Positions 1 through 62,501 of a stretch of 64,000 nt of DNA are shown piece by piece. The stretch is from Macrostomum lignano (taxonomy: Eukaryota). Numbering within the stretch: position 1 is the stretch's first letter; each line of letters begins with the position of its first letter. The DNA is taken from positions 1 to 64,000 of the forward strand of contig NIVC01001485.1 in the NCBI GenBank assembly GCA_002269645.1, read 5' to 3'. The translations under genes were made by a program, and so were the position numbers. A model generated the notes under the pieces. The model did no database searches, was not told where the DNA came from, and saw nothing but the letters and a program-made list of their open reading frames with translations.

Positions 1-370
1 GCCCTGTACACTGAGCAACCGCCCCCCATGCGGGGGACAGAAGAGCCCCTGTAGCTGGGGACAGAGAGCAGCCCCTGTAGGCAGGAGGGGTAGTGCGTGG
101 AGAAGCCGCCATCCCCCTGTAGCAGGGGACAGATAACAGGCGACCCCTGTAGCAGTATGAGGTGGGGTACAAAGAGACACGGGGTGCTGGGACAGAGAGT
201 GCGTGGAGGCACCCTGCGCTGCCCTGGCATGTCGCAGCACGCGGCGTGGACAGAGAGGGAGTATGAATCACACGAGCGGGAGAGCCCCGGCCGGAGAGAG
301 CGGCCAGTCTGGAGGAGCGCGGTGAGCAGACCGGGGGTGATGAGAGAGCTCCCCCCAGGGCAGTAGAGGA
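1..370. repeat. Left terminal inverted repeat of element A (partial)
   Basis: 1..272 is the near-exact reverse complement of 9660..9931; degenerate similarity continues to ~370/9570. Confidence 0.9.
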
Positions 371-449
371 CTTGAAAAGAAAAACACGTATTTTAGTTGT
401 TTCAGGTTCAGGCCATCCGGCAAACAGAGCAAAGCTCTCCAACAGTGTT

Positions 450-1079
450 TTATTTAGCATAAACTACGGGGTAGCGCCCCAACACATTAGCATAGTAGCG
501 AACAGATGCGTTCTGCAAGCAATTAACAATCAAGTAGGAGTAGGGCTCCCTAGTGGCGTCTTCGTACATTTGAACAAAACTTTTTGGGTTAGCGGGGACA
601 AGCTGCTTTGCAATATGGCGACTGTACTAACGTCCCGTACATTGCGGAACAATACAAGGTAGTTTGCGTTAAGGGATTGAGTGCGGTGCTCCTTGCCCTT
701 GGCAAACAGGTTTTGTACAAGGTACCAAAGCCGGAATCCCACATGGCTGACTTTGCGAGTGAAAAATGCGGTAAAAGCAGCGTTTTTTTCCATGGCTTGC
801 ATTTGATCATCGACAACGAGTAGAATATTCGGAGCGGGAACATAGGTTTCAGGGTTAAATGTAGACGAGCGAAAATTGACAGGGTACGGTAATTCAAACA
901 GTTCCGGGTCTGGATAGTGCCCAAACCAATCAACGCGAACAGGCTTAGGGTCCTGAAAAAACTCGTTTCGCAGCAATTCTTTAACAAGAGTTGTTTTTTC
1001 CGCTCTGGTTAACACCAGCAAAAATCGCCGAAGTATTTGGAGCAAACTTTAGAGCGTCAGGATCAATTGTTTGGTACAT
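450..1079 (-). pseudogene. Genome-packaging ATPase (A32/FtsK-like, Polinton type) with two apparent frameshifts
   Basis: ATG 1079 gives MYQTIDP...AGVNQSGK, then +1 shift at T6 run 994-999 to KTTLVKELL (Walker A); Walker B LLVVDD; QNLF motif; second shift near 610 restores DATREPYSYLIVN and stop at 450-452. Confidence 0.85.
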
Positions 1080-1113
1080 TTTCAGGGCGAGTTGACACTC
1101 CAAATATTAAAAA

Positions 1114-1551
1114 CTATTTTATTTGTAGAACATGTTTTCGAACCATCAAATCATTTTCAAGCAGATTGGTAGAGTAACATTCCCTTAAAATCTTTTCAAT
1201 CGACAACCCCTCTAAAAAGTGCTTTTCGGCCACAAAAATCACATGCGGCCCACACGCTACACTTAGAGGGTGTTGAACAGGGTGGCGATTCATAGCAACA
1301 GGTGAATGTACATGCTTCGAGATCCAAGCCGAGAGCAATTCCGGCACGGGTTCAATACACAGAGGGTCAAAAAATGTCACACTCTTATCATCGTGTAGGC
1401 AAATCAGTCCCCAGTGGGTGCCTGGCAGATTACCCGTGTCAAAATTAATTACATATGCAGCAGGGTAAACAGGTGCAGGAATTCTGTCGAGAGGGCAAAC
1501 GTGCACTTCCACAGGTAGTTTTAAACACTCCAAAATTTCCAACGTGTTCAT
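1114..1551 (-). CDS. Adenain-like (C5) capsid maturation cysteine protease
   Basis: Catalytic His GTHW, Asp FFDP, Gln/Cys QHPLSVACG in adenain order; 145 aa intact. Confidence 0.9.
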   Translation of the reverse strand: MNTLEILECLKLPVEVHVCPLDRIPAPVYPAAYVINFDTGNLPGTHWGLICLHDDKSVTFFDPLCIEPVPELLSAWISKHVHSPVAMNRHPVQHPLSVACGPHVIFVAEKHFLEGLSIEKILRECYSTNLLENDLMVRKHVLQIK

Positions 1552-2831
1552 ACGTAGTCCAGAATGGGCTGGCGGCCTCTAGTGATTTGCACCGCGTTGT
1601 CAAAGTAACCAAACACCAAAACGTTAATCCCGGCAGGTAGGGCTGCAGAAAACTTTATCTGTAGGGTCAGATTCCCTCTCTCGCGAGGCATGCTATGTCC
1701 ACCCAGTTCCATATCGGGCATTAGATTCCACGCAAATAAGCAGTAACCGGCGCGATAATCCGAATATGACAGGTCAATGTCCAAATCGCGATTCATTTTC
1801 CCTAGGCTCTTAAACAGCATGGCGTATTCGCGAGCATAGTTTTGGGCAGCGAACCTTGGAGTGAATGGTTGACCGCACAGACTGACACCGTCCTTGTACA
1901 GGGCCACACTGTCAGCCCCAAATGGCTCGAAATTGAACGGATTATGGGTAGCCACCCCGTTATATGCGGCACTATTTACCATTCCCATAATGACAAGTTT
2001 AGGCTTCTGCTCCGGGAAAATATTATTGATTGACACGTCGCGAACTCCTACAGCGACAGAGGTGTTGTGTACAACGAGGCGCTCGATGGGGTAGACTGCA
2101 TTCTGAGTTGCCAGCTGTTCTTCAATCTCCAAGGCCAGTTGGGGGTTAGCCTTTACCCGACGAACGTGTAATTTTGCACTTTGAAGAACCAACTTTGCAT
2201 CAACCCCTTCGGCGTGATTCTCTACAACGAATCCCGAATTTTGCAGAGTGAGCGTAACCACCATATCAGTGTAGGGTAGCAGCATACGATCGTTGGTGAC
2301 AAAAAAGTCGAGACTAAGAGGGCCATACAGGTGAAATGTTCGAGAACCGGCAGCCATCGCCTTGCGAGTTACAAAGCCAGGATTTCCAACCGCAGCCATT
2401 TGACCCCCAGCGTCTTTAGCGTAGCCCATCATCCGCAGTTGGTTAGACTTTGAATCAGACCCATAACTCAAGCATGTACGAATGTACGCCTTGTAGGCGT
2501 GGTTGTTGTTGCTAGACTCGATATGTGTACCATTTATGGAAAGAGACACGTTTTTGAACATGGTCTCCAAGAGGTAATTGATTGGCGCCACGTTTGAATC
2601 CGCCGCCAAATCGGCTCCATTAGCTCTTTTAATACAACCTTTAATCTCGAGATCAATGTCATTAAGATCGACAAACGTCTCGCCGCCCACAATTCTAAAC
2701 TCAACCACACTCGCATTTTCGACGCTGGCAACCGGGTGGATTTCTTCAGTAGTTGAACCTACAGCGGCAATCTGGTGGGCTCGAGGGGCAAAGAGCTCAA
2801 ACTCGGACTTTGTACACAGACACTCGGACAT
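1548..2831 (-). CDS. Double jelly-roll major capsid protein (Polinton PY/hexon-like)
   Basis: N-terminal ECLCTKSEFELF signature, 427 aa, NPFNF and terminal G.L.L...F...L...V.V.G.F strands typical of Polinton MCP; intact. Confidence 0.9.
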   Translation of the reverse strand: MSECLCTKSEFELFAPRAHQIAAVGSTTEEIHPVASVENASVVEFRIVGGETFVDLNDIDLEIKGCIKRANGADLAADSNVAPINYLLETMFKNVSLSINGTHIESSNNNHAYKAYIRTCLSYGSDSKSNQLRMMGYAKDAGGQMAAVGNPGFVTRKAMAAGSRTFHLYGPLSLDFFVTNDRMLLPYTDMVVTLTLQNSGFVVENHAEGVDAKLVLQSAKLHVRRVKANPQLALEIEEQLATQNAVYPIERLVVHNTSVAVGVRDVSINNIFPEQKPKLVIMGMVNSAAYNGVATHNPFNFEPFGADSVALYKDGVSLCGQPFTPRFAAQNYAREYAMLFKSLGKMNRDLDIDLSYSDYRAGYCLFAWNLMPDMELGGHSMPRERGNLTLQIKFSAALPAGINVLVFGYFDNAVQITRGRQPILDYV

Positions 2832-2860
2832 GTTTAGTAGACAGACTCGATTCGGCGAAT

Positions 2861-3205
2861 CTAATTGAAGCGGGGCTTTTTATTTATAGTGCTGAAAATG
2901 TCTGAATTGAGACGCTTCGGAGCCTTTTTTCTTCTTCGTCCGCTACCCCTTTGGGTAACCGTGTCTTTAAAGGCGTCCTTGGCAGCCTGAACAGAATTGC
3001 GCAGGACAGACTCCTTCAAATTGCCTCCTTGCTCGAGGCTATCGTTAACAGTAGTTGCTAGGGCTCTAGTACCATGACGGAGAACGTTTTTACCAAAACT
3101 CTTTAGAATTGGCAGCGCGAAGCGGGCAATGCTTCCAAACAAACCGTTGCCCCTCTGGGCGCCCGCGAAAACAGGCAAAGCTCCACCAATCAGAATAGAA
3201 GGCAT
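2861..3205 (-). CDS. Basic core protein (pVII-like Polinton protein)
   Basis: QRGNGLFGSIARFALPILK motif, basic RRRKK tail, LIGG/QRGNG candidate adenain sites. Confidence 0.7.
   Translation of the reverse strand: MPSILIGGALPVFAGAQRGNGLFGSIARFALPILKSFGKNVLRHGTRALATTVNDSLEQGGNLKESVLRNSVQAAKDAFKDTVTQRGSGRRRKKAPKRLNSDIFSTINKKPRFN
2881..2888 (-). promoter_or_regulatory. TATAAATA box upstream of MCP
   Basis: Exact TATAAATA on minus strand 50 nt before ATG 2831. Confidence 0.6.
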
Positions 3206-3245
3206 GATTAAGCACTAGGATATAGTTTACTGAGGCTGTGCTGTT

Positions 3246-3253
3246 TATTTATA
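3246..3253 (-). promoter_or_regulatory. TATAAATA box upstream of core protein
   Basis: Exact TATAAATA 41 nt before ATG 3205, overlapping penton stop. Confidence 0.6.
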
Positions 3254-4377
3254 GCTTCTTTTCGCGGATGTTAACGCTCAAGACGGTCTTGCCCCTCATT
3301 ACTTTTGTCATATCCCTGCCCATATCATCGTTAATTTGTACTTCAATAGTTTTGAATGGGTGCTTAACCAGCGGTAGATATGCCGGATTGACAAACTCGT
3401 AGTACTCGCGACCGCCCTGAACTTTGGGATCCATCGGTATAGCTCCCAACAGAGGAACTTTAACGTCTCCTACAATAACAGAATCGACTATGCTCGAATA
3501 GATGTACATTGTTTGTATTCCACCGGTTAATTCCATTGATGCGTTTGCGTAGAAATCCGATATACCGAAAAATGGGGTTGTATAATCATGCTCTGGGAAA
3601 CCAAGCACGCTGGTCAAGCGCCCCAGCCCAAACATGTAATCCACGAGCCAATGTAATAACACCTATTCGTAACTTCGCTGTATCCGAAAAAGTCCTTCTA
3701 GGTGCTGGAGCCGCTATGAGATCTTTGATCCGTTTCCAAATTAAATCGTTGAGTTCCTCCACCAATCTTTTAGGTGTACTATAGTATCCACCCTGCATAA
3801 AATAGATTTGATCAGACGCTGCGCTAGTAACTTGTCTTATTATTGGAGCGTGGTCCATTGACTGTACAGTCGGTTCCTCAACAACTGCGGTGATGGAGGC
3901 TGCACACCCCGCGTGTAATACGAGTTCAGTAGGTAGATCCTCATTAGACTCGAAGCCGGCGACTAGTTTAAACACCTTGGGTAGGGCATCCGGGAATTTG
4001 ATGCCGACGGTGGATTTTGAAGTATTCACAATCATAAAGGCGGTTGGGGATGTTCTTAAAAAGACAATTTTCTTATTATCCCCTTCAACGTATCGGATAC
4101 CGTTTAGAAAGCCGGAAATACATTCTTCAGGGGTTTTCAGACCCGCTGCGAGACAAAGGCTTGCAAACGACGAAGCCGTCAAGAGGCCCTCCTGTTCGCG
4201 AATGGTGATCGGTATAGATTTTTTGAAAGATTCAAATTCTTTGGTAAAGTAGATCCGTTCGAGGCAAACCTCATGATTCGGAAAGTGGAGAGTGTCCGGT
4301 AAATTAATAAAATAATGAGCCGGATTATTTTCGGGATAGTGCTCGGGGCACGCATTGCTAGGCAGAAAGAGATGCAT
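3249..4377 (-). pseudogene. Minor capsid protein (single jelly-roll penton, Polinton PX) with one apparent frameshift
   Basis: N-term MHLFLPSN..YPENNP.HYFINLP.TL; C-term MYIYSSIV..VIVGD.KVPLL..I...YLPL..TIEVQIND; ORFs 3586..4386 and 3249..3662 join by removing one G at TTTGGGCTG (~3628). Confidence 0.85.
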
Positions 4378-4389
4378 GGTAGCCACGCA

Positions 4390-5468
4390 TTAGTTATTAT
4401 TACGTTGACGTATATTTATAACTTCATTTACAGGTACAAATGAATTAAAAGTGTCGGGATAACCGCGCCAGCTAACGTAATGGTGCGCAACACCATTTAT
4501 TAACACGTTTCTACGCAAAACTTTATTGATTACAAAACGCTCGGGTCGGGTAGATTTGGACAGTTCATTGTAGTAAAACCGTCCCTCAATCACTTCACCA
4601 GACAAATCAGAAATACGATAAAAATGTGGGGGTCCAGGGCAAACTTTGGATATAATGTACACCTCCTCACTATACATGTCGTATGCCTCCTTGTCGAATG
4701 CCCTGCGAGATTTCGAAATTCTCACAAAATCCCCCTTTTTATATACGGGTCGTCTTTTTGCTGATCCGGGTAAAGCTTTTCCCACACACGCTTCTGATTG
4801 TGGAACCCTACACTTGACGGTTTCATCTCAATAGTAGAATGCGTCGTGTTGTTGTAATTGCCTATCAAATTAGGTAAGTAGTCAACCCAACGCCACGTGT
4901 TGTTGTGCTCAAAGTAGCGAGCCAGACGCTTTCGAAGAGTTCTAATCAGCCTCTCGGCCATGTTTGCCTTGTACACAGAGTTGGTGCTGTACATTTTAAC
5001 ATTATTGTCTTTTAGTATGCGGCGCATTCGCTGATTATAAAACTCGGTACCCCGATCCACGTGAAGGTAAAGGGGGCGGGCAGGGAAATCATTCGCCAAC
5101 ATTGACTCAAACGCTGCGGGGGTATCACTCTTTAGTTTAATTGCCCTACAAAAAGCCTGCTTACTAAGCACATCAATAATAACTAGTATATATTTATGTC
5201 CGTCATTCCAACGTTTGTATCGCGACATGTCCATCAAATCGGCTTGTAGAGTTTCCATGAATCCTCCCGACATTACTTTTCCCGTTTTAAATGTCCTGTT
5301 GACTCTCCGGTGACGGGTGTAACTCGGTTGGGTTTCTAGCCATTCCCTGGTTTGGCGTCTTGTCAGGTTTGGCGCCAGACGTTTGGCCTCCTGATAGACA
5401 CGGGCAGCATTTGAAAAAGCGGCGGCTCCTTGTTCGTAAACTCGACGAAGAGCGGTTAGAGCCCTCAT
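4390..5468 (-). pseudogene. Retroviral-type (rve) DDE integrase with C-terminal chromo-like domain, one apparent frameshift
   Basis: QADL / HVDRGTEF / MAERLIRTL catalytic triad; GD.VRISK..F.K; YVSWRGYPDTFNSFV chromo-like tail; ORFs 4722..5489 and 4390..4785 join near 4768. Confidence 0.9.
4413..4420 (-). promoter_or_regulatory. TATAAATA box upstream of penton
   Basis: Exact TATAAATA 36 nt before ATG 4377. Confidence 0.6.
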
Positions 5469-5601
5469 TGACAACAAGTGTGGATGCACAGCATGAATAG
5501 TTGCACGTAATGTCGGCTGGGGAGTTGTCTACACAAAGCTTTGACGCGGCTGCTGCTGCGCCCATGACCGCCGGGCGCGCGGTTATGTTTGGACTAGGGT
5601 T

Positions 5602-6228
5602 CTATTTATAAAGAGTCACGTATTTTTTCTTTTTCTCGGGTGGTCTTAGTTGGTAATCGTGATATTTACCCACCCCGGTACCTCGATCGACAAGTTTGGG
5701 CATAGCATTTACACCTTTGTTGCGCGTGGTCGTTAAATCGCGGGTGTCTGTCGCAATTGTGTGCTCATATTCATCGCGGTAATCGTCGGTACCAACCATA
5801 TGGTCAACCTTCTTTTCCTCCACAGGGAGCTGTTTCCGACCGAGCATAGACATTGGTATACGGGCCTTGTCTAGCAGAGCCCAGAAAGCGGTTGAATATT
5901 TCGGGTGATTATTAGTGCTGGTGGTGACGGCTTGTAGAAGATCAAAAACGTTGCTGCCACCCCAAGTTTCACCATCAAAAACGACTTCCCATGATTGGTT
6001 GTAATTTAGGCTGGGGTGCTTTTCTGTTAGTATATTCCATATACGTTGTTGCCTATCAGAAAATAGCTGCTTTGTCGTCTTTTGGGGTTTTACTTTAGCC
6101 AATTGGGTCTGTAGCTTTGCATTGTACTCTACAAGTTTTTCGTACTCCGATTTTGGGGCAATTTCTCGCGGAGTACCCTGTCTAAGCTGATTGAATTCCT
6201 CCTCGGGGACCACAACGTACTTGTCCAT
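5602..6228 (-). CDS. Conserved Polinton hypothetical protein
   Basis: MDKYVVVPE start and EVVFDGETWGGSNVFDLL...P...FWALLDKARIP segment resemble a recurrent uncharacterised Polinton/adintovirus gene. Confidence 0.6.
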   Translation of the reverse strand: MDKYVVVPEEEFNQLRQGTPREIAPKSEYEKLVEYNAKLQTQLAKVKPQKTTKQLFSDRQQRIWNILTEKHPSLNYNQSWEVVFDGETWGGSNVFDLLQAVTTSTNNHPKYSTAFWALLDKARIPMSMLGRKQLPVEEKKVDHMVGTDDYRDEYEHTIATDTRDLTTTRNKGVNAMPKLVDRGTGVGKYHDYQLRPPEKKKKYVTLYK

Positions 6229-6230
6229 TT

Positions 6231-6620
6231 TCAACGTCGTTGTCCTAGCAGACCACCAAACAGTCCAGTGATTAACGGTGCAGCAATCTTGGCGAGAATT
6301 GGTAGGAATCCTCCAACTTGAGGGTCCGATAGTATCATATTCTTCTTCCTATTTATAGACAGTTTTTTGTCGGCCATGTCATGCAGGGCTTCTCTATAAC
6401 GTTTCAACCTTGCAAACTGTCTAGGGGATAGATCGATATTGCCCTTGAGTACATTGTGGCTTAACTCGCACAGACACTGCATCAACTCATTATCGGCTCC
6501 CCTAATAATGGCCCTCCTTCGATGTGGTCGCGCGTCACCGAGCTCCTCTAGCTCGCGACGGCAAGAACAAAGACGAGAAATTCCGTTTGTCATTATTAAG
6601 GTGGTAAGCATTGCGTGCAT
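6231..6620 (-). CDS. Small basic virion protein with QxGGFLP amphipathic tail (pX/pVI-like)
   Basis: CLCELSHNVLKGNIDL and QVGGFLPILAKIAAPLITGLFGGL; GG/F and GG/L candidate adenain sites. Confidence 0.65.
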   Translation of the reverse strand: MHAMLTTLIMTNGISRLCSCRRELEELGDARPHRRRAIIRGADNELMQCLCELSHNVLKGNIDLSPRQFARLKRYREALHDMADKKLSINRKKNMILSDPQVGGFLPILAKIAAPLITGLFGGLLGQRR

Positions 6621-6638
6621 ACATGTGCATATTTTGTT

Positions 6639-6646
6639 TATTTATA
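6639..6646 (-). promoter_or_regulatory. TATAAATA box upstream of pX-like gene
   Basis: Exact TATAAATA 19-46 nt before candidate ATGs 6620/6611/6593. Confidence 0.55.
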
Positions 6647-6658
6647 AGCAAAGCATAA

Positions 6659-7138
6659 TTAGAGTTGCAGAATAGCAGTCACGTGGTCGTACATTTTACA
6701 CAGTTCGTCATAGTTTCGTATTCCTAGGAACACTAACCGACCATTCTTTCCGCACAGCAGGCACTTGGCCTTGCGGAATGGGGACTTTATTACAAGCCCA
6801 TTGAATACCTCACTCTCCCACTCAACCCAGCGCGAGCTCGAGTTGGCAAGGCGGAAAAAGTTTGGCTTAACATTAACTTCTGCACGATAAGTACCGGTAG
6901 TGATAACAACAGAGTTTGGTTTACATTGAGCAAAAAGACGCAGCACATCGTTGGTTGATTGGCAACCAAAAACAATGGCAGATAATGAACGTTTGAAAAA
7001 GTTTATTGTACACTTTCCGATCCTCAGGTTGTACAATGCCCGGGGTCTATGAAACGTTCTAGCGCGCGCCCAGTCCAAGTTCGGTAGGTGGTTCCACCTT
7101 GCGCAAAACACCCTGTTTACGCACACGACGTTCTGCAA
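6659..7138 (-). CDS. Divergent TATA-binding-protein (TBP)-like protein; no ATG in frame
   Basis: LQNVV start vs TBP IQNIV; WESEVFNGLVIK..CLLCGKNGRLVFLG..ELCKMYDHVTAIL aligns by eye with TBP YEPELFPGLIYR..LLIFVSGKVVLTG..EIYEAFENIYPIL; ~160 aa matches TBP core size. Confidence 0.65.
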   Translation of the reverse strand: MQNVVCVNRVFCARWNHLPNLDWARARTFHRPRALYNLRIGKCTINFFKRSLSAIVFGCQSTNDVLRLFAQCKPNSVVITTGTYRAEVNVKPNFFRLANSSSRWVEWESEVFNGLVIKSPFRKAKCLLCGKNGRLVFLGIRNYDELCKMYDHVTAILQL

Positions 7139-7739
7139 GCGGTTTTTTCGGTTGCTTTTGTTTCCGCTCAGCTCCACCAGCTCCGCGCTTGCGTCCTACC
7201 TTGATTTTTAACGGTGGAATCCAGTAGCAGCGGTCAAACGCCTGCTTGGGAGCTTCTATGAATTGCAGTTGTTGAATTTTCGGCACCGCGGTTAGAACCG
7301 AGTCGTGAATCACCGCCGTGTCTAGGGCGAACAGTACTCTATAGTAGCCCGTCTTGTTCTTGTAGTCGGTGCACAACTTGCCGCTCTTGTCGTACATTTT
7401 AAAGTCGTGAGCCAATCCGAATGCAGCGCTGTCGCAGCCAAAAGTGGGGTTGTACCCCAATAGCGCCATTCCTTGGATAGAGAGCTGGTGACACACGGAA
7501 TTGAACGCTTCTGGTATGCAGCTCTCCAAGTGCTTTTGGGAAAGAATGATGAATTCGCGGCCTTCATTGTCGGTTCTCACACCCTTGACAATCAGTACGG
7601 GCGTCGCATTGGCAAGATAGAGAGGGCCCTGTTCGTCGTACTCAATGTCGTACGTCTCGGTTCCGTTGTAGCTTGGACCTCTCGACTTGAGAGAGAATAG
7701 GTCGATCCTAACACTATTGTAGTCTTGAACGGTATCCAT
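7059..7739 (-). CDS. Hypothetical protein, possibly OB-fold ssDNA-binding protein
   Basis: ATG 7739 (MDTVQDY) with TATATAAG 44 nt upstream; beta-rich C-half GYYRVLFALD..IQQLQF recalls phage/NCLDV SSBs; assignment is weak. Confidence 0.4.
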   Translation of the reverse strand: MDTVQDYNSVRIDLFSLKSRGPSYNGTETYDIEYDEQGPLYLANATPVLIVKGVRTDNEGREFIILSQKHLESCIPEAFNSVCHQLSIQGMALLGYNPTFGCDSAAFGLAHDFKMYDKSGKLCTDYKNKTGYYRVLFALDTAVIHDSVLTAVPKIQQLQFIEAPKQAFDRCYWIPPLKIKVGRKRGAGGAERKQKQPKKPLAERRVRKQGVLRKVEPPTELGLGAR

Positions 7740-7782
7740 GTTGCTGCTGCTGCTGAGAGTGGGTCTCGCTCCTGAGCGCCTC

Positions 7783-7790
7783 CTTATATA
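7783..7790 (-). promoter_or_regulatory. TATATAAG box upstream of SSB-like gene
   Basis: 44 nt before ATG 7739. Confidence 0.5.
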
Positions 7791-7827
7791 CCCTTGGCGC
7801 GGAGGGTGGGGTGGCTGGGCGTTTTTG

Positions 7828-8343
7828 TTATAGTCCTTCTTTAACGACACTTTCCGGTGTTGGAAATCCGGAAAAAATAAACCTTTTGTTTCGATCTTCT
7901 GGTCGAGGGGTTTGAGGCGTGTCGTGAATGCAGCTGCAGTGAGGGTTGATAGTCAACTTCGCTAGCACTGGTCTACTGTGTTTAGGTCGCCAAATCCTTT
8001 GGTGTTCCGTCCACGAGGGAGCAATCGGCTGGTGATTCCGGTACCGTATTTTCTCACGATGATCCTCTTGTAATATTGGGGCAATTATCTGCTCCATTCT
8101 TTGAAGATTGGCTTTGAAATGCATCTTGTCTCTAAAGTAGTAGTCAATTCGGGCATCTGTATATTCTTGGGTGCTGTAAGGCCCTTGCCCAATTTCGTCT
8201 ACCTCGACATTAAAGGTGACTAATCGTTCGGGAATTGGTTTGCCGTGACAAATGCATAACCAGTCTGTGGACTTTTTCAGGGTCTCGTACTCTGCCCTTT
8301 CTTTGCTCGATAAAAGCGGGTAGTCTCGAGAAATCCAGCTCAT
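7828..8343 (-). CDS. Hypothetical protein (171 aa)
   Basis: ATG start overlapping upstream stop; fits the compact gene packing; no recognisable motif. Confidence 0.55.
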   Translation of the reverse strand: MSWISRDYPLLSSKERAEYETLKKSTDWLCICHGKPIPERLVTFNVEVDEIGQGPYSTQEYTDARIDYYFRDKMHFKANLQRMEQIIAPILQEDHREKIRYRNHQPIAPSWTEHQRIWRPKHSRPVLAKLTINPHCSCIHDTPQTPRPEDRNKRFIFSGFPTPESVVKEGL

Positions 8344-8693
8344 TCCTCTGACTCGTCAGATTCGTCGAGAAAGAAATAGTGGAAGAAATTGTCGACTCTA
8401 TTCTTTTCAACTGCACAAAGTATTTTGTCTGACAGGTGAAATTCGCAGTCTCCTTTTACGTACAGGCGCTTCCCGTCGATAACTTTGATAGATGCGCCGC
8501 CTCCGAGATCGTAATCTGTGCAGCTAGTGTCCAGAAATTTCATTCGATGCCATTGTGCTCGACTAAACACGGCTCCTGGACAGCTACAGTTTTGACAGTG
8601 GATGCGGAAACGCGGCTTGTTTGGGTCCCAATATCCCACTTCCAGCACTGCGTTGTCAACGTGGGTGTACACTATTTCCGATTGCCAGTACAT
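8340..8693 (-). CDS. Small protein, possibly PC4-like ssDNA-binding/coactivator fold
   Basis: PGAVFSRAQWHRMK resembles PC4 GISL..EQW..LK; acidic tail DESDESEE; TATAAATA 32 nt upstream. Confidence 0.4.
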   Translation of the reverse strand: MYWQSEIVYTHVDNAVLEVGYWDPNKPRFRIHCQNCSCPGAVFSRAQWHRMKFLDTSCTDYDLGGGASIKVIDGKRLYVKGDCEFHLSDKILCAVEKNRVDNFFHYFFLDESDESEE

Positions 8694-8724
8694 TTCGATA
8701 TTGTTGAGAAATACCAATTTTATT

Positions 8725-8732
8725 TATTTATA
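8725..8732 (-). promoter_or_regulatory. TATAAATA box upstream of PC4-like gene
   Basis: Exact TATAAATA 32 nt before ATG 8693, overlapping Fic stop. Confidence 0.55.
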
Positions 8733-9507: not shown

Positions 9508-9569
9508 ACAGAGGGTTTTGTACACTGCTTCTATTTATGGTTGCATTAACACGTTGCTCGCGGCCTGTC

Positions 9570-10251: not shown

Positions 10252-10469
10252 AGTGCTAATTTGCAAAGGGTATTGCTAATCTGGGTGAGCAGCGCTAATC
10301 GGGGAGAGCAGTGCTAATCTGACGCATATAATAAAATAATAAATATGTAAGGGAATTAAATTGAACTTGCAAGTTGCAGAAACATTTTAAATGGTTTCGA
10401 TTATCCAGAAGCAATATAGCCATAAGCAAAGATTAGTGCAATGTACAAAACAGTACTGGTGAACGATGA

Positions 10470-13701: not shown

Positions 13702-13780
13702 GCGGAGTAGCCGCAGTGTAGGCACTTAGGACTAGGTTTAGGCTAGACGTAAGGTCCAAGGTTCGAATCTGCCTCCCCGG
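13702..13780 (+). other. tRNA-like Pol III head (SINE or tRNA relic)
   Basis: Box A-like GTAGCCGCAGTGTAGG and box B GGTTCGAATC at tRNA spacing; arms do not pair well. Confidence 0.35.
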
Positions 13781-31932: not shown

Positions 31933-31977
<45 letters not shown>

Positions 31978-51300: not shown

Positions 51301-53979
51301 ACAGTGGGCATTTGATGTGGCCGCACTTGTGCTCCGGCTCCCTTTGCCCAACTTTCATCTCCTCCAAATATCCGCATTTGGGGCAGACTCGGACAGAGTC
51401 GCAGCGAGACCTGCCGGCCCGGTTTTTCCGGCGGTGGTTCTCAAAGCACTGCTGATTGTAGCACTTGAGGCCACAATCAGGGCAGCGCTTGTAGTCGCAC
51501 CGCAGGCTCTTGCAATTGGCGCCGGGCACTTTACACTGAGGGCAGGTGTTGGCGCACTTGTGCCCTGCAGAGTTGCAATCATACGGCTGCTGGCAGCGGT
51601 CGCAATAGTAACGGGCTCCGAAAAATGGCGGCACCTTGCAAACAGCGTTAAAGTGTTCGCCAATTAGGTGCAAATTCAGCACTTCGCAGCCGGGCAGGGC
51701 GTACACACACGTGTTGCCTTCATCAGCACTGTATACCCGGACGCCGAAATCCCGGCCAGGCGACTGGGCGTTCAGGACCGCGAGCAGTTGGGGGAGCACG
51801 TCAACCCCGAAAGGCCCGGCCTGTGCAATGGTTGATAAAGACTAAAACATTTGTATATTAATAAAAATGCAAATTAAAATGTGCAAGAACATTTTTACTC
51901 ACCGAATACAATTTGGCTGCAATTTGTAACTCCCCAGTAAGCTTCTTCTGCATTGGGGAGTCAGCCTTGATGGTCCGCCAAGTCCGCTTAGAAATTGTCT
52001 TGGCCTCCAGGTCGGCAAAGGCCTTGGCGACAATCAGCGCCCGAATGAGGCAACGCTTGTCGCTGTTGGCGATGACAGCATAATTATAGCCCATAGCATG
52101 GCGTGCCTGGATGTGGCGCTCCGCAGCATCTAAGCTGCCGCAGCCGCCCCGCGGGACCCAGGCCTTGAGTAAAAACAATTTAAAGTTGTTGCCCAAGACG
52201 CTGGAGTCCGACTGCAGAACCTTGTTGATATGTTTAAATATCAGCTCTGCAGTGAAGCGGCTGCGGCGGACGGGCGGGACATTGATGGCGAGCATCATAT
52301 TGTCCGCCGTCAGCTTAGATGCGACGAAATCGTTGACATTCAGGTCGGCGCAGAGTGCCGAAATTACTTTCGCGAATGTGTCGCGAATATCGGTGAGTGC
52401 TGTGAAAGACACTTCATACTCGTAGCCCTTGGCTCTAAATTTTGGCAGGGCTTTCGCCCCGCCAAGACGCGCAATGAAGCCTGAAAAAAATGGAGGGTTT
52501 GAAATTAGAATTGCGAGAGGCGGCGGCAGGTTTATGACTCATAAAATCAACTCCTTACCATCGCCTTCGACAGTGTCGGGCTGGGGCGGGGGTTGAAATT
52601 GAGCCAAATCTGCAATAAAAATGCGCATGGTGACTAAAATTCTGACCGCTTGGAATTTTACAACTGTCAAAAATTTTTGATTGATTGCCTGCAGCAGCAG
52701 CAATTTTATCGCCCCACCCCAAGCAACAAAAATCGGTGAGTTGTAAAAACCCCCAACTCGGCACGTTCCGACACGTAGCAACAAAAGAAATGTGGGGTTG
52801 ATTGACCCCCGCTTCGAATTTTAGGCTGTCAAAAATGTTTGATTGATGACCCTGATAACACAGATCCTGCCGCAGCAGCCATTGTAAAATTTAAGAAAAC
52901 CCCTATCAGCACGTGCCTCCATTGTGCCTCCTTGACACCTAGCAACAATACCGCGCGGCCGCTTTTGGATTTTAAAGCTGTCTGATTAATAACCCTCACT
53001 GTAGCAGCCAAGTTTTATTGCTGCCAAAACCCCATACAATTGCAGCGATGATTACATCATCATGCCCAAAAATCGGGGGTTGATTTTATCACTGCGCCGC
53101 TAGAATACCTGCCGCCGTGGTGATTACATCATCATGCTGAGCCCAAAAATCGGGGGTTGATTTTTATCACTGCCGCCTGCCCGCCCCCCGCTGAGTCACG
53201 CGCGCGCTGCAGGATTGCTGTTTTTGCTTCTCTAGTCATATAACCCCTGAAATTTTATGACTATCCCCTACAGGCATTATCTGGCTATACTGCTGCTGCT
53301 GCTGATATTCTCAAAAACTCTGTTATTTCAACAGGTCTGAATTTGAGAAATCCAACTTCAACATCTATGTCAAGAGGAAATTCCGAAATTTTAACCAAAA
53401 ATGAATGCTAAAGATGAAAAGCAGTGGTTTTCAAAGAAAGCCCATATTTCAACAAGCGAAAAGTTTGCAAATCACACTAATGCTAAAGCTGAAAAGCGCA
53501 GTTATACAACCCTATTTTTCTAATTTTAGATTTTGCAAATGCTAAAGATGAAAATAATTGAGGCTAATGTATAAAAAGCAGTTTTTCAGAGAGTCCTATT
53601 ATTTCAATAAGCTGAATTTACAGTTTGGAAAGCAACTCTGAATGCAAAGGGTGAAAACCAGTTTTACAGTGGGGCCTCCTATTATTTCAATAAGCCTTAT
53701 TTTGAGTTTGCGAAAGCCAAATGAATGCCAAAGATGAAAAAGCAGTTTTTACAGAGAACAGCCCTATATTATTCAATAATCCCGAATTTGGAGTTTCGTA
53801 AAAAGATAAAGATGAAAAAGAAATTTTTACACAGACTTGCAAGACTCACCTAGCTGTCGTCCCCTCTTTGCGGGCGGAGGCTGATGCTGCTGCTGTGGTT
53901 GCTGCTGCTGCCTGGAGGGGCCAGCCTGCCCCCACAAGGCTGAAATGGCGGCTTCAGCGGCTGGGCGTTTTGATGCCAT
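48397..53979 (-). CDS. Protein-primed family B DNA polymerase, 7 exons (53979-53850, 52609-52559, 52480-51903, 51820-49871, 49783-49236, 49157-48870, 48787-48397), 1311 aa predicted
   Basis: All introns GT-AG with consistent phase; Exo I FYDTET, Exo II AHNASGYD, Exo III YCLSD; motifs YRDV/VSLYP, KIFLNS/LWGKF, YCDTDS/V; VSR-like VDG..LQFHGCFYHGC insert; N-terminal DKRCLIRAL..EHF; exon 1 (Kozak GCCACAATGG) less certain. Confidence 0.92.
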
Positions 53980-54080
53980 TGTGGCTGATGCTACTGCTGC
54001 TGTTGTTGCTGATGCTGCGGTTGTGGCTTCTGCTGCTGCTGGCTGCTTCTGCGGATGCGGCTGCAGCAGCTCTCATCCGC

Positions 54081-54088
54081 TTTATATA
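54081..54088 (-). promoter_or_regulatory. TATATAAA box upstream of pPolB exon 1
   Basis: About 100 nt before ATG 53979. Confidence 0.5.
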
Positions 54089-57000
54089 CCCCGCAAGAGG
54101 GAGGGTGGGGTAGGGGCACGAGAATTGTGCGTGATTTTCTTTCCCGGGTCTATATTCTCCAGATTAGTGTACGATTGTACACTCCATTCCGCATTTGATA
54201 TAGAAAGTTGGGGTCAAAATTACCCCGCCGATTCTTTTCTCATGCGGTATTTTATTGGATCTGAGCGGAGCCATCCAACCGGCACTCTCGCAGGAGTGAA
54301 ATGGCGACTTCGTCAGAGTACAGTCTCTCAAAGAAGAAGACCGCTTCCTCTTGCAACATATCTTTTCGACTTGAATCGGATAGGAAACGGTGTTTATCCA
54401 GAAAACAATTGGCAGAAGCTGACCAATAATAGCTAAATACAGATGAAAAATATGAAAGATAACTTCTGTGGTTTTTAAGGCCCGCCTGTCTCTGCGAGAA
54501 AATGGATGTCAAAAATCGCTGTATCAATTTAATGACCTGGGGGAAATGGGGCTTGTGTGCAAAGCATCTGATTGACAGAGGCTCAGGGAAGAGTAAGAGT
54601 CGATGAAAAGCTCTTGCATTCTTCTAAAATATCCATCAAAGAGTAATAAAGGTGACACCCCTGTCTCGAGCCAAATAAGAGAGACGGAGTTTTCTACTTC
54701 TGTTTACGTAATGTTTGGGGATGCTTCCCTGTCACCTGGGGTTATAGGGGCAGAGAGTCAGTTATGGCATGTAAGCGGTGGTAAAGAATTGCCTTGGTGA
54801 GGCTGGGGTAGGTGTTGTTCTCTCCATATTGGCGAACATTAATAGTCCTGGGTTGAATTTTGAATATGGCTAGAATGTATAGCGGAGAATCGTTGAATTG
54901 AAGGGAGATTCAACATGCAAAGTATTCAACAAAACCGATTCAGTGCATCTAAAAGAGGCAGTGCGAGCTTCAGAACTGAGAATAGCGTTTAAGATAGCAT
55001 CAATGGCATGATTTAATAATCGAATATTGAAAACTTTAAGTTAATAGCAGATTGTGTTTTTAGCGCCAATTTTTATAGTGTCTATAGAATACTTCCCCAG
55101 CTTCTTGGGCAATATACATGCCTATTTGAATGATGAAACAGCATTTGTGATGATTTATTAGCTAAAATTATGATTTCTATTGATAAAATGACAGATTTCG
55201 ATCCATAGCTCGTAAAGTAAGCATTTTAACGTTAAAAATCGAAAAAAATGAGGAAAAATCGTGTTTTTCTTGAAACAGTTTGCATTTCTAATAAATTTTT
55301 ACCATTCATTAACCATTTCTTGGGCTGGGCTGGCTTGTGGACTTCCGTGTGGGACTCATTCCTGCTTCGAAGCCGTATTAAGTAAAGTTGAAACGGCATT
55401 TGGGCATTAGCTGTTGAAATGATGGTTCCCAGTGATGAAATTACTGATTTTGATCAACAAAGTCTAACTTTTAATGTTAAAATTAAAGAAACAGGAGAAA
55501 ATTCGCCTTTTATGAAATGACGGAATTCCAACTTGGAGAGGTCAGTGGGTATTTCATTCCTGCTTCGAGAGATCGAACTTTCATAGAGTCTGAAAGCTTG
55601 AAGTGAGAGGGCAGGGGAAGCGATAGAATTGGCATAGCAGCACGTTTTTGGGCGATTGGAATTCACTACTTCTAGTATACCACATTGGCTGTAGTGCCGA
55701 AGTATTTCTTTGACAAAACACATAAATGGAACTCTGTCTCGGAATTGAATGCAGAGGAGACACTGATTCATAGGCTGTGTACATTGACAGATGCAGGGTA
55801 TTGGGTCGATGCAGGTGGAGGTTGACTCGGATTTGCTCAGATTCGTGGAGTTGATGTGTGCATTAAAAGTTAGTTTCTTTCTTGCTAACTGGGGGCGGCG
55901 TGGATGACGTAATTGGATAAGAGGGGTTTTGCTGAATGAGGTTTAATATAGGGTCCGTGCTGTGAAAAGATCTGTCTGTACACTGAAAATGGAGAGAGGG
56001 TCGAAATTCCTTGGCATTTAGAAGGGTGACAGAGAGAACAGGGGCGAGTGGTTCTATTCGATTTGCTAAATAGGGGTCTGTTGACCATTGGAGGGTGGCT
56101 GTTTTCGAACAGTCTTGGAGTTGATTTTGAATATGGCCGGAGATAAAGGGTGATTCAATATGCAACATAATCGATTCCATAGTGTACACCTGCGTCTGTG
56201 GCATATTTTGCGGATTAAAGCGCAACAAGGGGTCTTGTATCATCTGCACTGTCAATAGATATATTGTATAAAACATTGCTTTCACAGTCTTGAGAGGCCA
56301 ACTAAATAAATATATATACGTATCAAAGCTCGGCCGGCTTTTTGTGTAAATATATATACGTCTTTTGAAAACTTATTTGGGAGAGGCGTTGGGAATGACG
56401 TAATTGTCCCGGAGTGGTGACGAGGGTTGAATTCCAGATGGATGAAGTATGGAAGGAGTGGAAATAACAGTGTGGACAGCGATTTTTGGCTGACTCATGT
56501 CTCATCCGCCAATTTTGGGGATGGGCGGCAGTTTCTGCGTACACTGTTTGCTTTTTGAGGGCCAGCAGAAAATGAAGAGTTAATTCTTGGATGTGCGGCC
56601 ACTTTGCAAATTTTGGATATAATATGGGTGGGTGGGTGCTTCTGCATGCTCTCTGTTTCAACTATTAAAAAAAATGATCTCCACTATTCCAATGTAATCT
56701 TTTTAATAGGAATCTAGACTTGTAAACTCTACTAATGGTAGTATAGCGTAATCAGTTACATTTGGTTTTGAGTAATTGACATATAAATATGCATATGTGA
56801 CGCGTTTTGTAAAACTTGGGTGTTGGCTCATTTAGATGGAATTGTACAGCGCTAATTCTAACCTCTGCGCATTTTACATGTACTGTACATGTAGTAGGGT
56901 TTCGAGTTGTAATTTTGGTGCGCGCGCGTGGGCCGTCTGTGGATGAGACTGTACATGTAGTAGGGTTTCCGATTTGTAATTTTGGTGCGCGCGGGCCGTC

Positions 57001-57630
57001 TGGGGAAGACACTGTAGATTAATGCACATGTACATATAGAATTGGGGATAGACAATTTGGGATAGGGATTAATGTACATGGAATTAATGTACAATTTGAG
57101 ATAGATAGGGATTAATGTACATGGTATTAATATGAGCACATGGATTATTACAACTACATATTGCCACATCACGCTTAGGATAGCGTTTTTGTATACTACT
57201 TACTTCATTTTTCAGATAGTAGTATAATTTGCGTTTTTTGCGTCAAAACATCTGAAAATCGACAACAATATACGCATTACGTAGTCATATATGAACAATG
57301 CGAACCAAGCAAATCCGCGCGTCTACCAAAGCCAACCCTACCCTGCGTGTTGTAATTGCATTTGTCAATGTACACACCCTATGAATCAGTGTCTCCTTCT
57401 TTGGAACACACGAAGGCATTAGTCAGAAAGTTTGGATGCAATTAAAAACTCTCTCGATGCTTTGCGTATAAACGAGTAATCGATTGAATCAATTGTACAC
57501 TTGACACATTTAATTACGTGCTGCCATGCAACGGAAAGACAGGATAATGGGGTGGGTGGTCACGCAGCCTCATTCTCTCTTTCCTACTGATTTTTCATTA
57601 TCTATCAATCTCAGCTCTTTCCGGGGCAAA

Positions 57631-58113
57631 ACATTTTGCAAAACATAGACTAAACTTTCAAATCATTCGTTTACACAACCAACTGTCTATATTAATGGTG
57701 GGGTTATTATTACTTTACAGAAAAACGCATGTCCTGTGTTACGACACTGCCTAGCAACCGTATAATTTTTGCAGGTCAAGGAGCATTAATACATGAACTA
57801 ACACTCCTATTTTGCATTCATTGAGAGGCGGAGGCAGCGGGCAGAGGGGGGGCCGGACCGTGACTGTGCGCAGCACAGTCCCTGTCTCTACTGCCGCCTC
57901 CGCCCGCTGCCGCCGCCTCTCAATGAATGCAAAATAGGAGTGTTAGTTCATGTATTAATGCTCCTTGACCTGCAAAAATTATACGGTTGCTAGGCAGTGT
58001 CGTAACACAGGACATGCGTTTTTCTGTAAAGTAATAATAACCCCACCATTAATATAGACAGTTGGTTGTGTAAACGAATGATTTGAAAGTTTAGTCTATG
58101 TTTTGCAAAATGT
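57631..58113. repeat. Perfect 201-bp-arm palindrome in the centre of element C
   Basis: 57631..57831 is the reverse complement of 57913..58113; GC-rich 81-nt loop with GACTGTGC-GCA-GCACAGTC hairpin. Confidence 0.92.
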
Positions 58114-59889
58114 CTCTATGAAAACTCATCTTCCTACTGACAGTAGAGTTTGCAAAAATCAGTTCTTGGAAGAATGCGACATTTTCGTGAAAATATTTAA
58201 ACTGCTATATTGGGCCTATGACAGATTTTTATTGAGAAACTATCGTCATTTCCACAGAGAAAGATAAACATGTGAAGCTTTCGTGAAGATTACATCTTCA
58301 TACTACGGGTATCAAATTTTCCTGTATTTGACTGAACGTACGTGCATTTAGTCATAGTCGGGGAGTGCTTCAACCATTTATCAGGTTTAAATCGGCTGCC
58401 GCTTGCATATGTACATCACATGTAAATGAACATGTGGTAAATCTGATGAGGAACTATGCACACATGCGCGAGTTGCCCCGGAAAGAGCTGAGATTGATAG
58501 ATAATGAAAAATCAGTAGGAAAGAGAGAATGAGGCTGCGTGACCACCCACCCCATTATCCTGTCTTTCCGTTGCATGGCAGCACGTAATTAAATGTGTCA
58601 AGTGTACAATTGATTCAATCGATTACTCGTTTATACGCAAAGCATCGAGAGAGTTTTTAATTGCATCCAAACTTTCTGACTAATGCCTTCGTGTGTTCCA
58701 AAGAAGGAGACACTGATTCATAGGGTGTGTACATTGACAAATGCAATTACAACACGCAGGGTAGGGTTGGCTTTGGTAGACGCGCGGATTTGCTTGGTTC
58801 GCATTGTTCATATATGTGCATCGAAATTTTTTTTCTTGCTAACTGCTTCTATGGGGAGGTGGATGACGTAATCAAGATAGGGTTTTGGTTGGAGGAGGCT
58901 CAATATATGGGTCCGTGCTGTGAAGATATCTGTTTATACACTGAAATTGGAGAGGTAGGGGTCGGAATTCCTTGACAGTTAGAAATGGTAAGGTCAGAGA
59001 GACAGGGACGAGTGGTTCTGTTCTACATGGGTCTGTGCTGTGAAGACGAGTCTAATATGACCATTGGGTGTTGGCTGTTTTGCCAATTCAGTAATATACT
59101 AAACCTGTCCAGCTGTTTGCCTCATGAGTCACTTTTCTCGGTGGGTGCAGAAGGAGAGAGAGAGAGGTCTGGGAGGGACAGTTTAAATGTCAATCGAAAT
59201 CAACGGGCCGCTTCGCCGACTGTATATGTTAAAATTATTATAGCTAGGTTTATAGCAAACTGTACGTTTTAACCCAATTCAAGAATAATCCCTTCCCTGA
59301 CTTCTTGAGGGGTATTACATGTACCAAATACATACATTTGAATGATGAAACAGCATTTTTGACGATTAAGTTGTAAAAATTATGGTTTCTGCTGATGAAG
59401 TGATTAATTTTGTTCAATAAAGTCAGCATTTTAACGTAAAAAGAGTAAAAACTGTGAAAAATTGACCTTTTTAAAACGAAAATGTGCAATTTCTAGTAAT
59501 TTAGCTTTCAATGAAAATGTCTTGGGTGGAATTCCAACTTGGGCCGGGGTGTGCATATGGAGATCAGTGTGTGACTCATTCCTGCTCGAAAGCTGTCTCT
59601 TGCCAACTTTGAAATCAGCATTTGGACAAATTAGCGGTTGAAATTATGGTTTTTGGGATGAAACTACTAAGTTTGATCAATTCGCATTTCGCATTTTAAC
59701 GTTAGAAAATAATAAAACTGTGAAAATTGGCCTTTATTAAACGAAAGAATGAGAAATTCTAAGAATTAGCTTTAAAAAAACCATGGTTTTAGTGGAAATT
59801 GGACTGGCTCGGGTAATCCGTGTGCGAATATAATTCCTGCTCAAAGCTGTCTCAGAGTTCCAGAAGTAGCATTTGTGATAATTTTGTGT

Positions 59890-60990
59890 TAAAATTGTGG
59901 TTTTTAGTGATGAAACCTACTGATTTTGATCAATAAAGTCTGCATTTTAACGTAAAAATGCATAAAAACTGTGAAAAATTGTATTTTCTTATAAAAAATG
60001 CTCATTTCTAGCAATTTAGGCTTCAATAGCCATGTCTTTGGCTGATTTTGGGCTGGCTTGTGGATGTTTGTGTGGGGTTCATTCCTGCTTAAAAGCTGTC
60101 TAAGGTCAAGTTGAAAGCGATATTTGGACAAATTAGCTGTTGAAAGTATGGTTTCTAGTGATGAAACTACTGATTTTGATCAATAAAGTCTGCATTTTAA
60201 CGTAAAAATGCATAAAAACTGTGAAAAATTGTATTTTCTTATAAAAAATGCTCATTTCTAGCAATTTAGGCTTCAATAGCCATGTCTTTGGCTGATTTTG
60301 GGCTGGCTTGTGGATGTTTGTGTGGGGTTCATTCCTGCTTAAAAGCTGTCTAAGGTCAAGTTGAAAGCGATATTTGGACAAATTAGCTGTTGAAAGTATG
60401 GTTTCTAGTGATGAAACTACTGATTTTGATCAATAAAGTCTGCATTTTAACGTAAAAATGCATAAAAACTGTGAAAAATTGTATTTTCTTATGAAAAATG
60501 CTCATTTCTAGCAATTTAGGCTTCAATAGCCATGTCTTTGGCTGATTTTGGGCTGGCTTGTGGATGTTTGTGTGGGGTTCATTCCTGCTTAAAAGCTGTC
60601 TAAGGTCAAGTTGAAAGCGATATTTAGACAAATTAGCTGTTGAAAGTATGGTTTCTAGTGATGAAACTACTGATTTTGATCAATAAAGTCTGCATTTTAA
60701 CGTAAAAATGCATAAAAACTGTGAAAAATTGTATTTTCTTATGAAAAATGCTCATTTCTAGCAATTTAGGCTTCAATAGCCATGTCTTTGGCTGATTTTG
60801 GGCTGGCTTGTGGATGTTTGTGTGGGGTTCATTCCTGCTTAAAAGCTGTCTAAGGTCAAGTTGAAAGCGATATTTAGACAAATTAGCTGTTGAAAGTATG
60901 GTTTCTAGTGATGAAACTACTGATTTTGATCAATAAAGTCTGCATTTTAACGTAAAAATGCATAAAAACTGTGAAAAATTGTATTTTAAT
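59890..60990. repeat. 250-bp tandem repeat in right arm of C (4 full copies plus partial)
   Basis: Minus-strand unit starts at 60131, 60381, 60631, 60881. Confidence 0.92.
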
Positions 60991-62501
60991 GAAAAAAAAT
61001 GTGCATTTCTAGTCATTTAGCTTTTAAAATAACCTAATTTCTTGTTTGAAATTCCAACTTTACTTTGTATGGAGAGGTCAGTGCATGATTCATTCCTGCT
61101 TCTAACAGATTAAACCGACCGTCTCAAAGACCAAGTCTGAAAGCTTGAAGTGAGAAGGTAGGGGAGGCGGAGAGGCAGAATTGAATAGCCTCACGTATTT
61201 AAATATGTGGACTTCACTACTTCTAGTATAACGCAAGGGTGACTTATACAATTTACAAAGTTTAGAATCAAGTAAATCAGAATTGCATGCGGTGGAGACA
61301 CTGATTCATAGGCTGTGTACATTTACAAATGCAGCTGGGGTTTGTCAATGCAGGTAGAGGTTGGCGGACTCGGATTTGCTCAGATTCGCGGGGTTGATAT
61401 GTGCATTAAAAGTTGGTTTCTTGCTATCTGGGGCGGCATGGATGACGTAATCGGAGAAGAGAGGGGTTTTGCTGAATGAAGTTTAATATAGGGTCGGTGC
61501 TGTGGAAAGATCTGTCTGTACACTGAAAATGGAGAGAGGGTCGAAATTCCTTGGCATTTAGAAGGGGGACAGAGAGAACAGGGGCGAGTGTTAAAATTTA
61601 GCCCGATTTTGCTATGGGGTCTGCGCTGTGAAGACGAGTCTGGTGAACATCGGAGGGGTGGCTGTTTTCGAACAGGGTTGAATTTGACTATGGTCCGAGT
61701 TAAAGGGTGATTCAGCGTTCAGTATAGGAGCTTCGAGGGGATGGTTTACTGTAATTAAAGCGCGACGAAGCTTCTTGTATCATACCCACTGTCAATAGAA
61801 ATATAAAGCACTGCTTCAACACAGTCTTGTATTTGGGGGGACAGACTTGGGAGAGACTTGGATGACGCAACCTCCACCCCATTGCTTGGCGAGAGTTTGT
61901 ACAGGCCCGCCTCTATATGAAAGTATGTGTATTTTATAAGTGATTTCGAATAAATTATTCAGCATATTCAAACCTGTAGTCTCCGAGGGTAAAAATGTAC
62001 ATACCTAATTTTTGGGGTATGTAGCGGATATGAGTATAGAGGCTATCGATGTACATATAGACTCCGACCCGTATTATTCAAATCTGTCTCTGAGAATGTA
62101 CATTGGAAATATACATTACGATGTGAGCTATACAATTAGTTGACTCATTTGGATGAGGTTGTACATGTAGTAGGGTTTCGAGTTGTAATCTTGGTGGGCG
62201 CGGGCCGTCTGGGGATGACACTGTACATGTGGATTAATGCACATGTACATATAGAATTGGGGATAGACAATTTGGGATAGGGATTAATGTACATGGAATT
62301 AATGTACAATTTGAGATAGATAGGGATTAATGTACATGGAATTAATATGAGCATATGGATTATTACAACTACATATTGAATCACGCTTAGGATAGCGTTT
62401 TTGTATACTACTTACTTCATTTTCGGATAGTAGTATAATTTGCGTTTTTTGCGTCAAAACATCTGAAAATCGACAACAATCTGCGTCCTACGTAGTAACG
62501 T

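Follow-up and report, generated by a model that had tools for sequence, protein, structure and literature searches.

Polintons, also called Mavericks (Polintoviricetes, including the adintoviruses), carry a protein-primed DNA polymerase (pPolB, PF03175), an rve integrase and capsid, ATPase and protease genes between terminal inverted repeats (TIRs), and are flanked by duplications of a 6-bp target site (TSDs) (PMC10748475, PMC8097293). Here we analyse the first 64,000 nucleotides of contig NIVC01001485.1 of Macrostomum lignano (C1485, positions 1-64000; hereafter the window), in which the same features are distributed over separate elements: element A, with the capsid module and integrase, and element B, with pPolB, the latter nested in a third, non-coding element, C. 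In the genome searched (764 Mb, 5269 contigs), the two segments form separate multi-copy families (A1 and A2, B1 and B2) that integrate separately and have 6-bp TSDs; purifying selection acts on both, and they share cognate pools of terminal alleles, A1 with B2 and A2 with B1. These observations make it probable that two bipartite Polinton systems, A1+B2 and A2+B1, co-exist in this genome, their segments mutually complementing in trans.

Several features set these elements apart from described Polintons. pPolB and integrase never occur on one molecule here, so the defining linkage is absent, and the units measure ~10 kb rather than 12.7-24.6 kb (PMC8097293, PMC10748475). Compared with vertebrate Mavericks, the ends read 5'-ACTAC instead of (AGT)2, (AG)3 or (AC)3A, a list that covers vertebrates only (PMC8097293); the pPolB gene has introns, of which intact Mavericks have none (PMC8097293, PMC10748475); and the ATPase gene goes with the capsid/integrase segment, whereas in the two-module layout of vertebrate Mavericks it goes with pPolB.

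As in a multipartite virus, complementary gene sets are found on separate elements with common terminal signals. The genome of the Bidnaviridae is likewise bipartite, with a pPolB of Polinton origin and termini that match between the two segments (PMC8502044, PMC11161782). They are ssDNA viruses, in contrast to the integrated dsDNA segments with a Polinton capsid module described here. The bidnavirus capsid is parvovirus-like, and these viruses are not known to have an integrase. In bipartite begomoviruses and nanoviruses, unrelated segments share and recombine a short origin, and satellites acquire helper recognition sites (PMC10880892); with circular ssDNA, a rolling-circle Rep, unrelated proteins and no integration, these viruses offer an analogy only. 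Polinton-like viruses (PLVs) and Tlr elements without pPolB resemble A in combining a capsid module with an integrase, but they encode another replicase, a helicase or primase, of which none is detectable in A, and a pPolB-only partner with shared ends is described for none of them in the portions of the literature examined. Finally, the yeast killer/helper linear plasmids (virus-like elements) comprise two linear, TIR-ended DNAs replicated by pPolB, some on the helper's polymerase (PMC13348850), but they are cytoplasmic, have neither capsid nor integrase, and depend on one another in one direction only.

An earlier note on this sequence, made from the window alone, had proposed a split system and called for a search for any copy linking the major capsid protein (MCP) or integrase with pPolB. 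We ran this search, counting a polymerase locus as linked when it lay ≤20 kb from a scored capsid or integrase match. None of the 117 B loci (0/46 B1, 0/71 B2) lay within this distance of any of 64 A-type or 91 distant-family capsid/integrase matches, nor was any of the 64 A-type loci near any of 33 distant-family pPolB matches. As a positive control, 4 of these 33 lay 6.8-9.3 kb from a distant-family MCP or integrase, so this genome does contain complete Polintons, though solely in families with 30-37% identity to A (MCP 30-33%, integrase 34-37%). In one such family, two copies of the complete element were identical at 10/10 sampled windows and are probably one insertion, while a third differed at 7/7. 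For the polymerase N-terminal exon, all candidates were scored (149/149). Within the window, none of 56 pPolB proteins matched A or C, in agreement with the statement that A lacks pPolB, and none of 15 A proteins matched B or C.

Each module comprises two old lineages. A search with the MCP returned 99 matches, of which A1 showed ~98-100%, A2 ~86% and the distant families 30-33% identity; polymerase searches returned B1 at ~95% and B2 at ~65%. In DNA searches for end pairs, with 40 candidates scored each (40 of 99 for C), A1 pairs spanned 10.4-10.7 kb in 11 of 13 cases, the 13 A2 pairs 7.6-10.7 kb, the B2-type pairs (on 16 contigs) at most 9.7 kb, and the B1-type pairs, many of them C-like, 3.4-14.4 kb. 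All ten A1-type pairs read outside the window begin ACTACT, and a pPolB match lies inside five of the seven B2-type pairs with a TSD read. A 6-bp TSD flanked 31 of the 32 end pairs read, integrase-less B types included (A1 10/10; B1-type 8/8, two by eye; B2-type 7/7; A2 3/3, two of which are one insertion; others 3/4), and the duplications previously described for window B (CATATA) and C (AACGTT) stood. Since B has no integrase, it would have been inserted in trans, the simplest donor being an integrase whose own element has the same ends; similarly, A, which has no replicase, is most simply copied by a polymerase whose element has the same ends.

The ends in question consist of a 31-nt cassette. 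In C as in all four families, ACTAC (followed by T, G or A) opens the element, ~20 variable bases come next and GRTTTT occupies positions 26-31, beyond which the TIR bodies are no longer alike. The window A and B TIRs had been described as alike over the terminal 5 bp only; their bodies are indeed unrelated beyond position 31, but YGATTTT at positions 25-31 is also common to both, in exact register. Diversity at positions 6-24 is 0.31-0.41 within families, as against 0.0098 for A1 MCP DNA. When 75 ends, representing 43 family-alleles, were compared (L008, L030, L031, L081, L119 and L120 being excluded as duplicates or window copies), the nearest allele of another family was the cognate one in 43/43 cases, A1 with B2 and A2 with B1/C, and the mean distance over positions 6-26 was 7.6-8.9 (minimum 0-2) between cognate families versus 14.4-15.3 (minimum 10) between non-cognate ones. 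Two identical 31-mers occur in A1 and B2, and one in A2 (C175) and B1 (L042). The resemblance of B2 ends to those of A1 was predicted once A2 ends were seen to resemble B1, and was then borne out. A genome scan for the cassette pattern gave 707 matches, versus 346 in the control, and among the first 100 (contigs C1-C200), which were inspected, the 17 gene-bearing loci obeyed the same pairing by eye.

Could such pools arise by gene conversion or recombination between chromosomal copies, with no functional meaning? High copy numbers and nested or chimeric insertions (C56, C19, C106) would favor it. We nevertheless consider this very unlikely, in that only the 7-nt anchor is common to cognate families, while A2 and B2 share 25 nt without exchange: they have 19 further bases in common right after the cassette and no cassette blocks, so adjacent homology-driven conversion does not explain the pools. 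Moreover, a change at one end of a copy is usually matched at the other, and TSDs stay perfect. Most copies carry the same allele at both ends, and the few with two different alleles (C4635, C10, C150 and C175, with L065/L066 among such pairs) are as expected of exchange caught before homogenisation.

Judged by substitution rates, both modules are under purifying selection and have remained functional across comparable divergence, close to saturation. Between A1 and A2, the MCP has a synonymous divergence (dS) of 2.0-2.1 and an omega of 0.03; between B1 and B2, pPolB has a dS of 2.4-2.5 and an omega of 0.12 (~0.1 within B1). These values are compatible with co-divergence of A1/A2 and B1/B2. 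B1 and A2 additionally have ~200 bp of subterminal DNA in common (82-90%); A1 showed no stretch of this kind in common with the available portions of B2. In its architecture, then, the split system proposed earlier finds support genome-wide, on the grounds of absent linkage, selection and shared ends; the pairing within the window does not, as A (A1) and B (B1) belong to different pairs.

Selection on both halves also bears on the idea that A and B are independent defective lineages kept by a complete helper Polinton (unassembled, exogenous or of a distant family), with which they exchanged ends. Complete distant-family elements are at hand in this genome, defective copies make up 96% of vertebrate Mavericks (PMC8097293), and C. 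elegans has partial Polintons, loci with pPolB and TIR but no integrase, that are treated as remnants (PMC11414722). Yet the distant families, at the identities given above, are not A's parents, and none of the first 100 of the 707 cassette-pattern matches (C1-C200) lay near four distant-family loci, namely three long pPolB frames without introns (one on C114, two on C166) and an MCP on C137. Purifying selection over a dS of ~2 on both halves, together with two parallel pairs, would be unexpected of passengers, and we regard such a helper as unlikely.

Dependence might alternatively run one way, with A an integrating virus of PLV/Tlr-like type that has no polymerase and relies for its copying on the host's enzymes or on another virus, and B a self-replicating linear replicon that captured A's ends to use its integrase and capsid, comparable to a Rep-encoding satellite. 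The contrast between intron-rich B and intronless A, and TIR bodies unrelated past position 31, would fit this arrangement, and PLVs without pPolB, as well as elements possibly using integration genes in trans, have been described (PMC11296320). It is quite unlikely in our view, given that A has no recognisable replicase and retains linear-type TIRs with an ACT-repeat end, and that its end alleles match B's in diversity and are homogenised across the ends in most copies, as protein-primed replication predicts. Pfam, PHROG and Atlas searches found no helicase or primase replicase in A, and Walker A is absent from its coding strand (the accessory ORFs were not folded).

In established Polinton biology, pPolB starts replication at the ends, and rve integrase makes the 6-bp TSD. 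pPolB carries a terminal-protein domain (PMC11161782), and one and the same end sequence should serve both polymerase and integrase (10.64898/2026.10.13.758929). On the bipartite reading, one Polinton would have been split into two separately integrating, TIR-bounded segments of ~10 kb. Going by Polinton and adenovirus biology, the pPolB of B, with its predicted terminal-protein region, would initiate at the ACTAC ends of any linear molecule of its own cassette type, the A integrase would insert these ends and the A capsid module could package unit-length molecules. Less firmly, the cassette may be the recognition site for the polymerase/terminal protein and the integrase, and ends may be exchanged among co-replicating linear molecules, through template switching or end repair at the GRTTTT anchor, a swapped end then being copied to the opposite end by TIR pairing. 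The fast turnover of positions 6-24 might reflect competition with non-coding riders or host silencing, and C and similar non-coding foldbacks would ride on the A2/B1 pair. A single feature, the similar unit length, suggests packaging of B; the existence of short derivatives implies that integration would be independent of packaging. Taken a step further, to a picture that we stop just short of calling probable, the segments could be paired germ-line proviruses of a bipartite dsDNA double-jelly-roll (DJR) virus, with two strains (A1+B2 and A2+B1) held apart by a 31-nt lock-and-key origin that passes between unrelated segments in protein-primed replication and diversifies in competition with non-coding satellites such as C.

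Several points weigh against the bipartite reading. All results come from one genome, and the lists of distant families are incomplete, the genome search having scored 95 of 448 MCP candidates, 143 of 1605 integrase candidates and 91 of 974 PF03175 candidates. The complete distant-family Polintons of this same genome have termini that were not located. Many B1-type derivatives are just 3.4-7.5 kb long, so element length is not strictly constrained, and dS is near saturation, too high to prove co-divergence. Four-gamete sets number two in the G pool and none in the T pool, and block mosaicism is modest. Several oversized end pairs (C106, C200, C56, C126, C2286, C4 and C150) are unexplained; that on C106 (353964-375023; L128, L129, L134), which spans 21 kb between B2 ends and has its TSD intact, contains a distant-family integrase and a TBP-like frame by eye and gave no B-type exon match, and is probably a nested insertion. 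Lastly, trans-complementation and packaging are what we infer from these data.

An 18.4-kb A1-ended pair (C56:643541-661960; L077, L078, L123-L127) was considered as a complete parent and rejected: three of three internal 250-bp samples were unmatched, and none of the MCP, integrase and B-exon match lists includes it, its interior having been sampled only. It carries the A1 ATPase-side end at both termini, adjoining a stretch with 90-94% identity to window B 54394-54563. On C19 (510599-513776; L137, L138), A2-type and B1-type ends lie 3.2 kb apart without a matching TSD, and the A2 flank resembles B1-type TIR DNA; this too is probably a nested insertion. A third cassette flavour (ACTACTTA…) was observed on a B1-like TIR body at C89:299555-309863 (L132, L133) and C19:6057. 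The C89 element, of 10.3 kb and with a TSD, has a weak (55%) match to the pPolB N-terminal exon and is possibly a third polymerase lineage. Distant-family integrase matches occur in pairs 9-10.5 kb apart on C2301, C3189 and C2692, inverted on the first two.

Among the papers listed in literature searches, none described a bipartite Polinton, though repeat libraries or supplements could list these families without pairing them; the sole listed paper naming both Macrostomum lignano and Polinton was a Tc1/mariner work. Polinton pipelines detect elements by co-location within 20 kb (PMC11414722), and where detection relies on polymerase-integrase linkage, split systems would be thrown out as debris and might go unnoticed elsewhere. 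If true, a stable split would offer a route from a monopartite dsDNA virus to segmentation, a state in which this polymerase is otherwise found in ssDNA bidnaviruses. The two natural cognate pairs, together with the end-allele catalogue, offer a handle on the terminal bases recognised by the Polinton pPolB/terminal protein and integrase, and the same pairs bear on whether Polinton proteins act in trans.

Table 1. Features of elements A, B and C in the window
Feature	Coordinates	Strand	Remarks
Element A, capsid + integrase segment	1..10251	-	family A1; left ~320 bp lost at contig start
A left TIR, truncated	1..284	.	95.8% to 9649-9931
Packaging ATPase region	530..1100	-	named from gene position and Walker A in other copies; no Pfam match
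Adenain/Ulp1-like maturation protease, putative	1114..1578	-	78-81% aa to A2
MCP, 443-aa open frame	1548..2879	-	F54H12.2-like homology
Small basic core-protein-like ORF (PW/pVII-like)	2861..3214	-	tentative label; no database match
Putative minor capsid (penton) gene, two frames in window copy	3249..4389	-	position and motif resemblance; no database match
rve integrase	4390..5528	-	PF00665 E 9e-10
Six accessory ORFs, one TBP-like (6659-7195)	5602..8723	-	PF00352 E 1e-4, just under cut-off
Fic-domain ORF	8728..9534	-	PF02661 E 7e-14
A right TIR, ~600 bp	9649..10251	.	right end at 10251 (…TAGTAGT)
Terminal cassette of A, 31 nt, T type (ACTACTA…CGATTTT)	10221..10251	-	allele pool common with polymerase family B2
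Element C left arm, non-coding foldback, 250-bp tandem repeats	44228..47663	.	TSD AACGTT 44222-44227
Element B, polymerase segment, 9622 bp	47664..57285	-	family B1; TIR ~320 bp; TSD CATATA; within C
B terminal 31-nt cassette, G type (ACTACGTA…CGATTTT)	47664..47694	+	pool common with A2 and C; mirror copy 57255-57285
pPolB gene, 7 coding exons	48400..53979	-	PF03175 E 1e-27; splice sites and phase; catalytic motifs
pPolB exons	53979-53850, 52609-52559, 52480-51903, 51820-49871, 49783-49236, 49157-48870, 48787-48400	-	
B subterminal stretch	56302..56498	+	82-90% to DNA directly 3' of A2 ATPase gene
Right part of element C, with central hairpin and mirror arm	57286..62496	.	empty B target site near 58811-58816; TSD AACGTT 62497-62502

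All ORFs of A are intronless and lie on the minus strand (Table 1). The contig starts inside the element, placing its left terminus and TSD out of view, and the right end sits in the edge of arrays of 22-, 30- and 57-bp repeats (10252-17700). The earlier note had credited A with every virion gene plus an integrase. By their labels these genes are present, but the ATPase, minor-capsid and integrase frames are interrupted in the window copy, a feature on which that note was silent: its long ATPase frame lacks Walker A, which an open frame contains in 26 of 30 capsid loci, and its integrase frame has 268 aa versus ~379 aa in many other copies. The MCP is 34% identical to F54H12.2-like proteins (E 4e-47), and Atlas linked it (0.98) to clusters in which 14-30% of members have PF21738 (DJR-like), with a recognition score below the tool's threshold; a single-sequence fold model reached a pLDDT of 34, too low for use, so that the fold itself is unconfirmed and the homology is at sequence level. 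Three labels are presumptive: the protease, from its H/D/C motif resemblance; the penton, from a motif and its position; and the small basic ORF, which we take to be a PW/pVII-like core protein. The protease had no match in Pfam, PHROGs or PDB sequences, and the accessory ORFs had none in PHROGs, PDB sequences or Atlas, none being helicase- or primase-like. Roles in transcription and host modification are possible for A's TBP-like ORF and for its Fic ORF, in which an HPFxDGNGR motif is seen. Short ENA/Logan contigs (P0001-P0003) contain a third capsid lineage, ~80% identical to both A1 and A2. Neither the MCP alignment nor the end motif nor the pPolB exon matched anything in scans of viral contigs, and a metagenome scan gave one locus at 29%, without pPolB context.

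The sole gene of B is pPolB, previously described as intact, and this was upheld: its seven exons are in phase, all introns are GT-AG, the catalytic motifs are present, and B encodes no match to an A protein. The three 3' introns appear as spliced joints, which could stem from other B copies, in X10 and/or X12, whereas X1 and X5 have none; these runs are contigs from one study, whose RNA nature is guessed and in which molecule ends are invisible. The remaining three introns are inferred. The protein is 89-96% identical to UniRef proteins of Macrostomum lignano, a laboratory flatworm, and beyond that species its best matches reach 29-43%. Exon 52480-51903 aligns with the N-terminal part of other pPolBs, with a conserved D-x-x-C. 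The N-terminal exon was modelled with a pLDDT of 89 and gave weak fold matches, to adintovirus and mavirus pPolB at E ~1e-2 and, as the best PDB hit, to unrelated folds at Z 6.5; these fold searches found no clear terminal-protein match. At 50100-50300, an insertion in a pPolB exon shows motif resemblance to a VSR-type nuclease. VSR-type nuclease insertions in pPolB have been reported (PMC10748475).

Element C, whose longest ATG ORF is 95 aa, resembles B in its TIR (90-93%) and subterminal DNA (69-77%), and its mirror arm preserves the empty site of the nested B, with a single CATATA. Going by these similarities, C is a B1-derived non-coding foldback in the A2/B1 cassette pool. It had been proposed as a parasite of both A and B, a proposal that fails for window A, which lies outside this pool. 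A Gypsy-like frame (reverse transcriptase, RNase H and integrase) directly flanks C at 62502-64000, C having inserted into this retroelement.

Elsewhere in the window, an intronless 1913-aa adhesion-GPCR frame (19139-24880; laminin G, GAIN, GPS, 7tm_2) is a host gene unrelated to the elements. A pair of 92-bp inverted repeats, 91% identical and 11.2 kb apart (25074-25165 and 36412-36503), possibly marks another DNA element.

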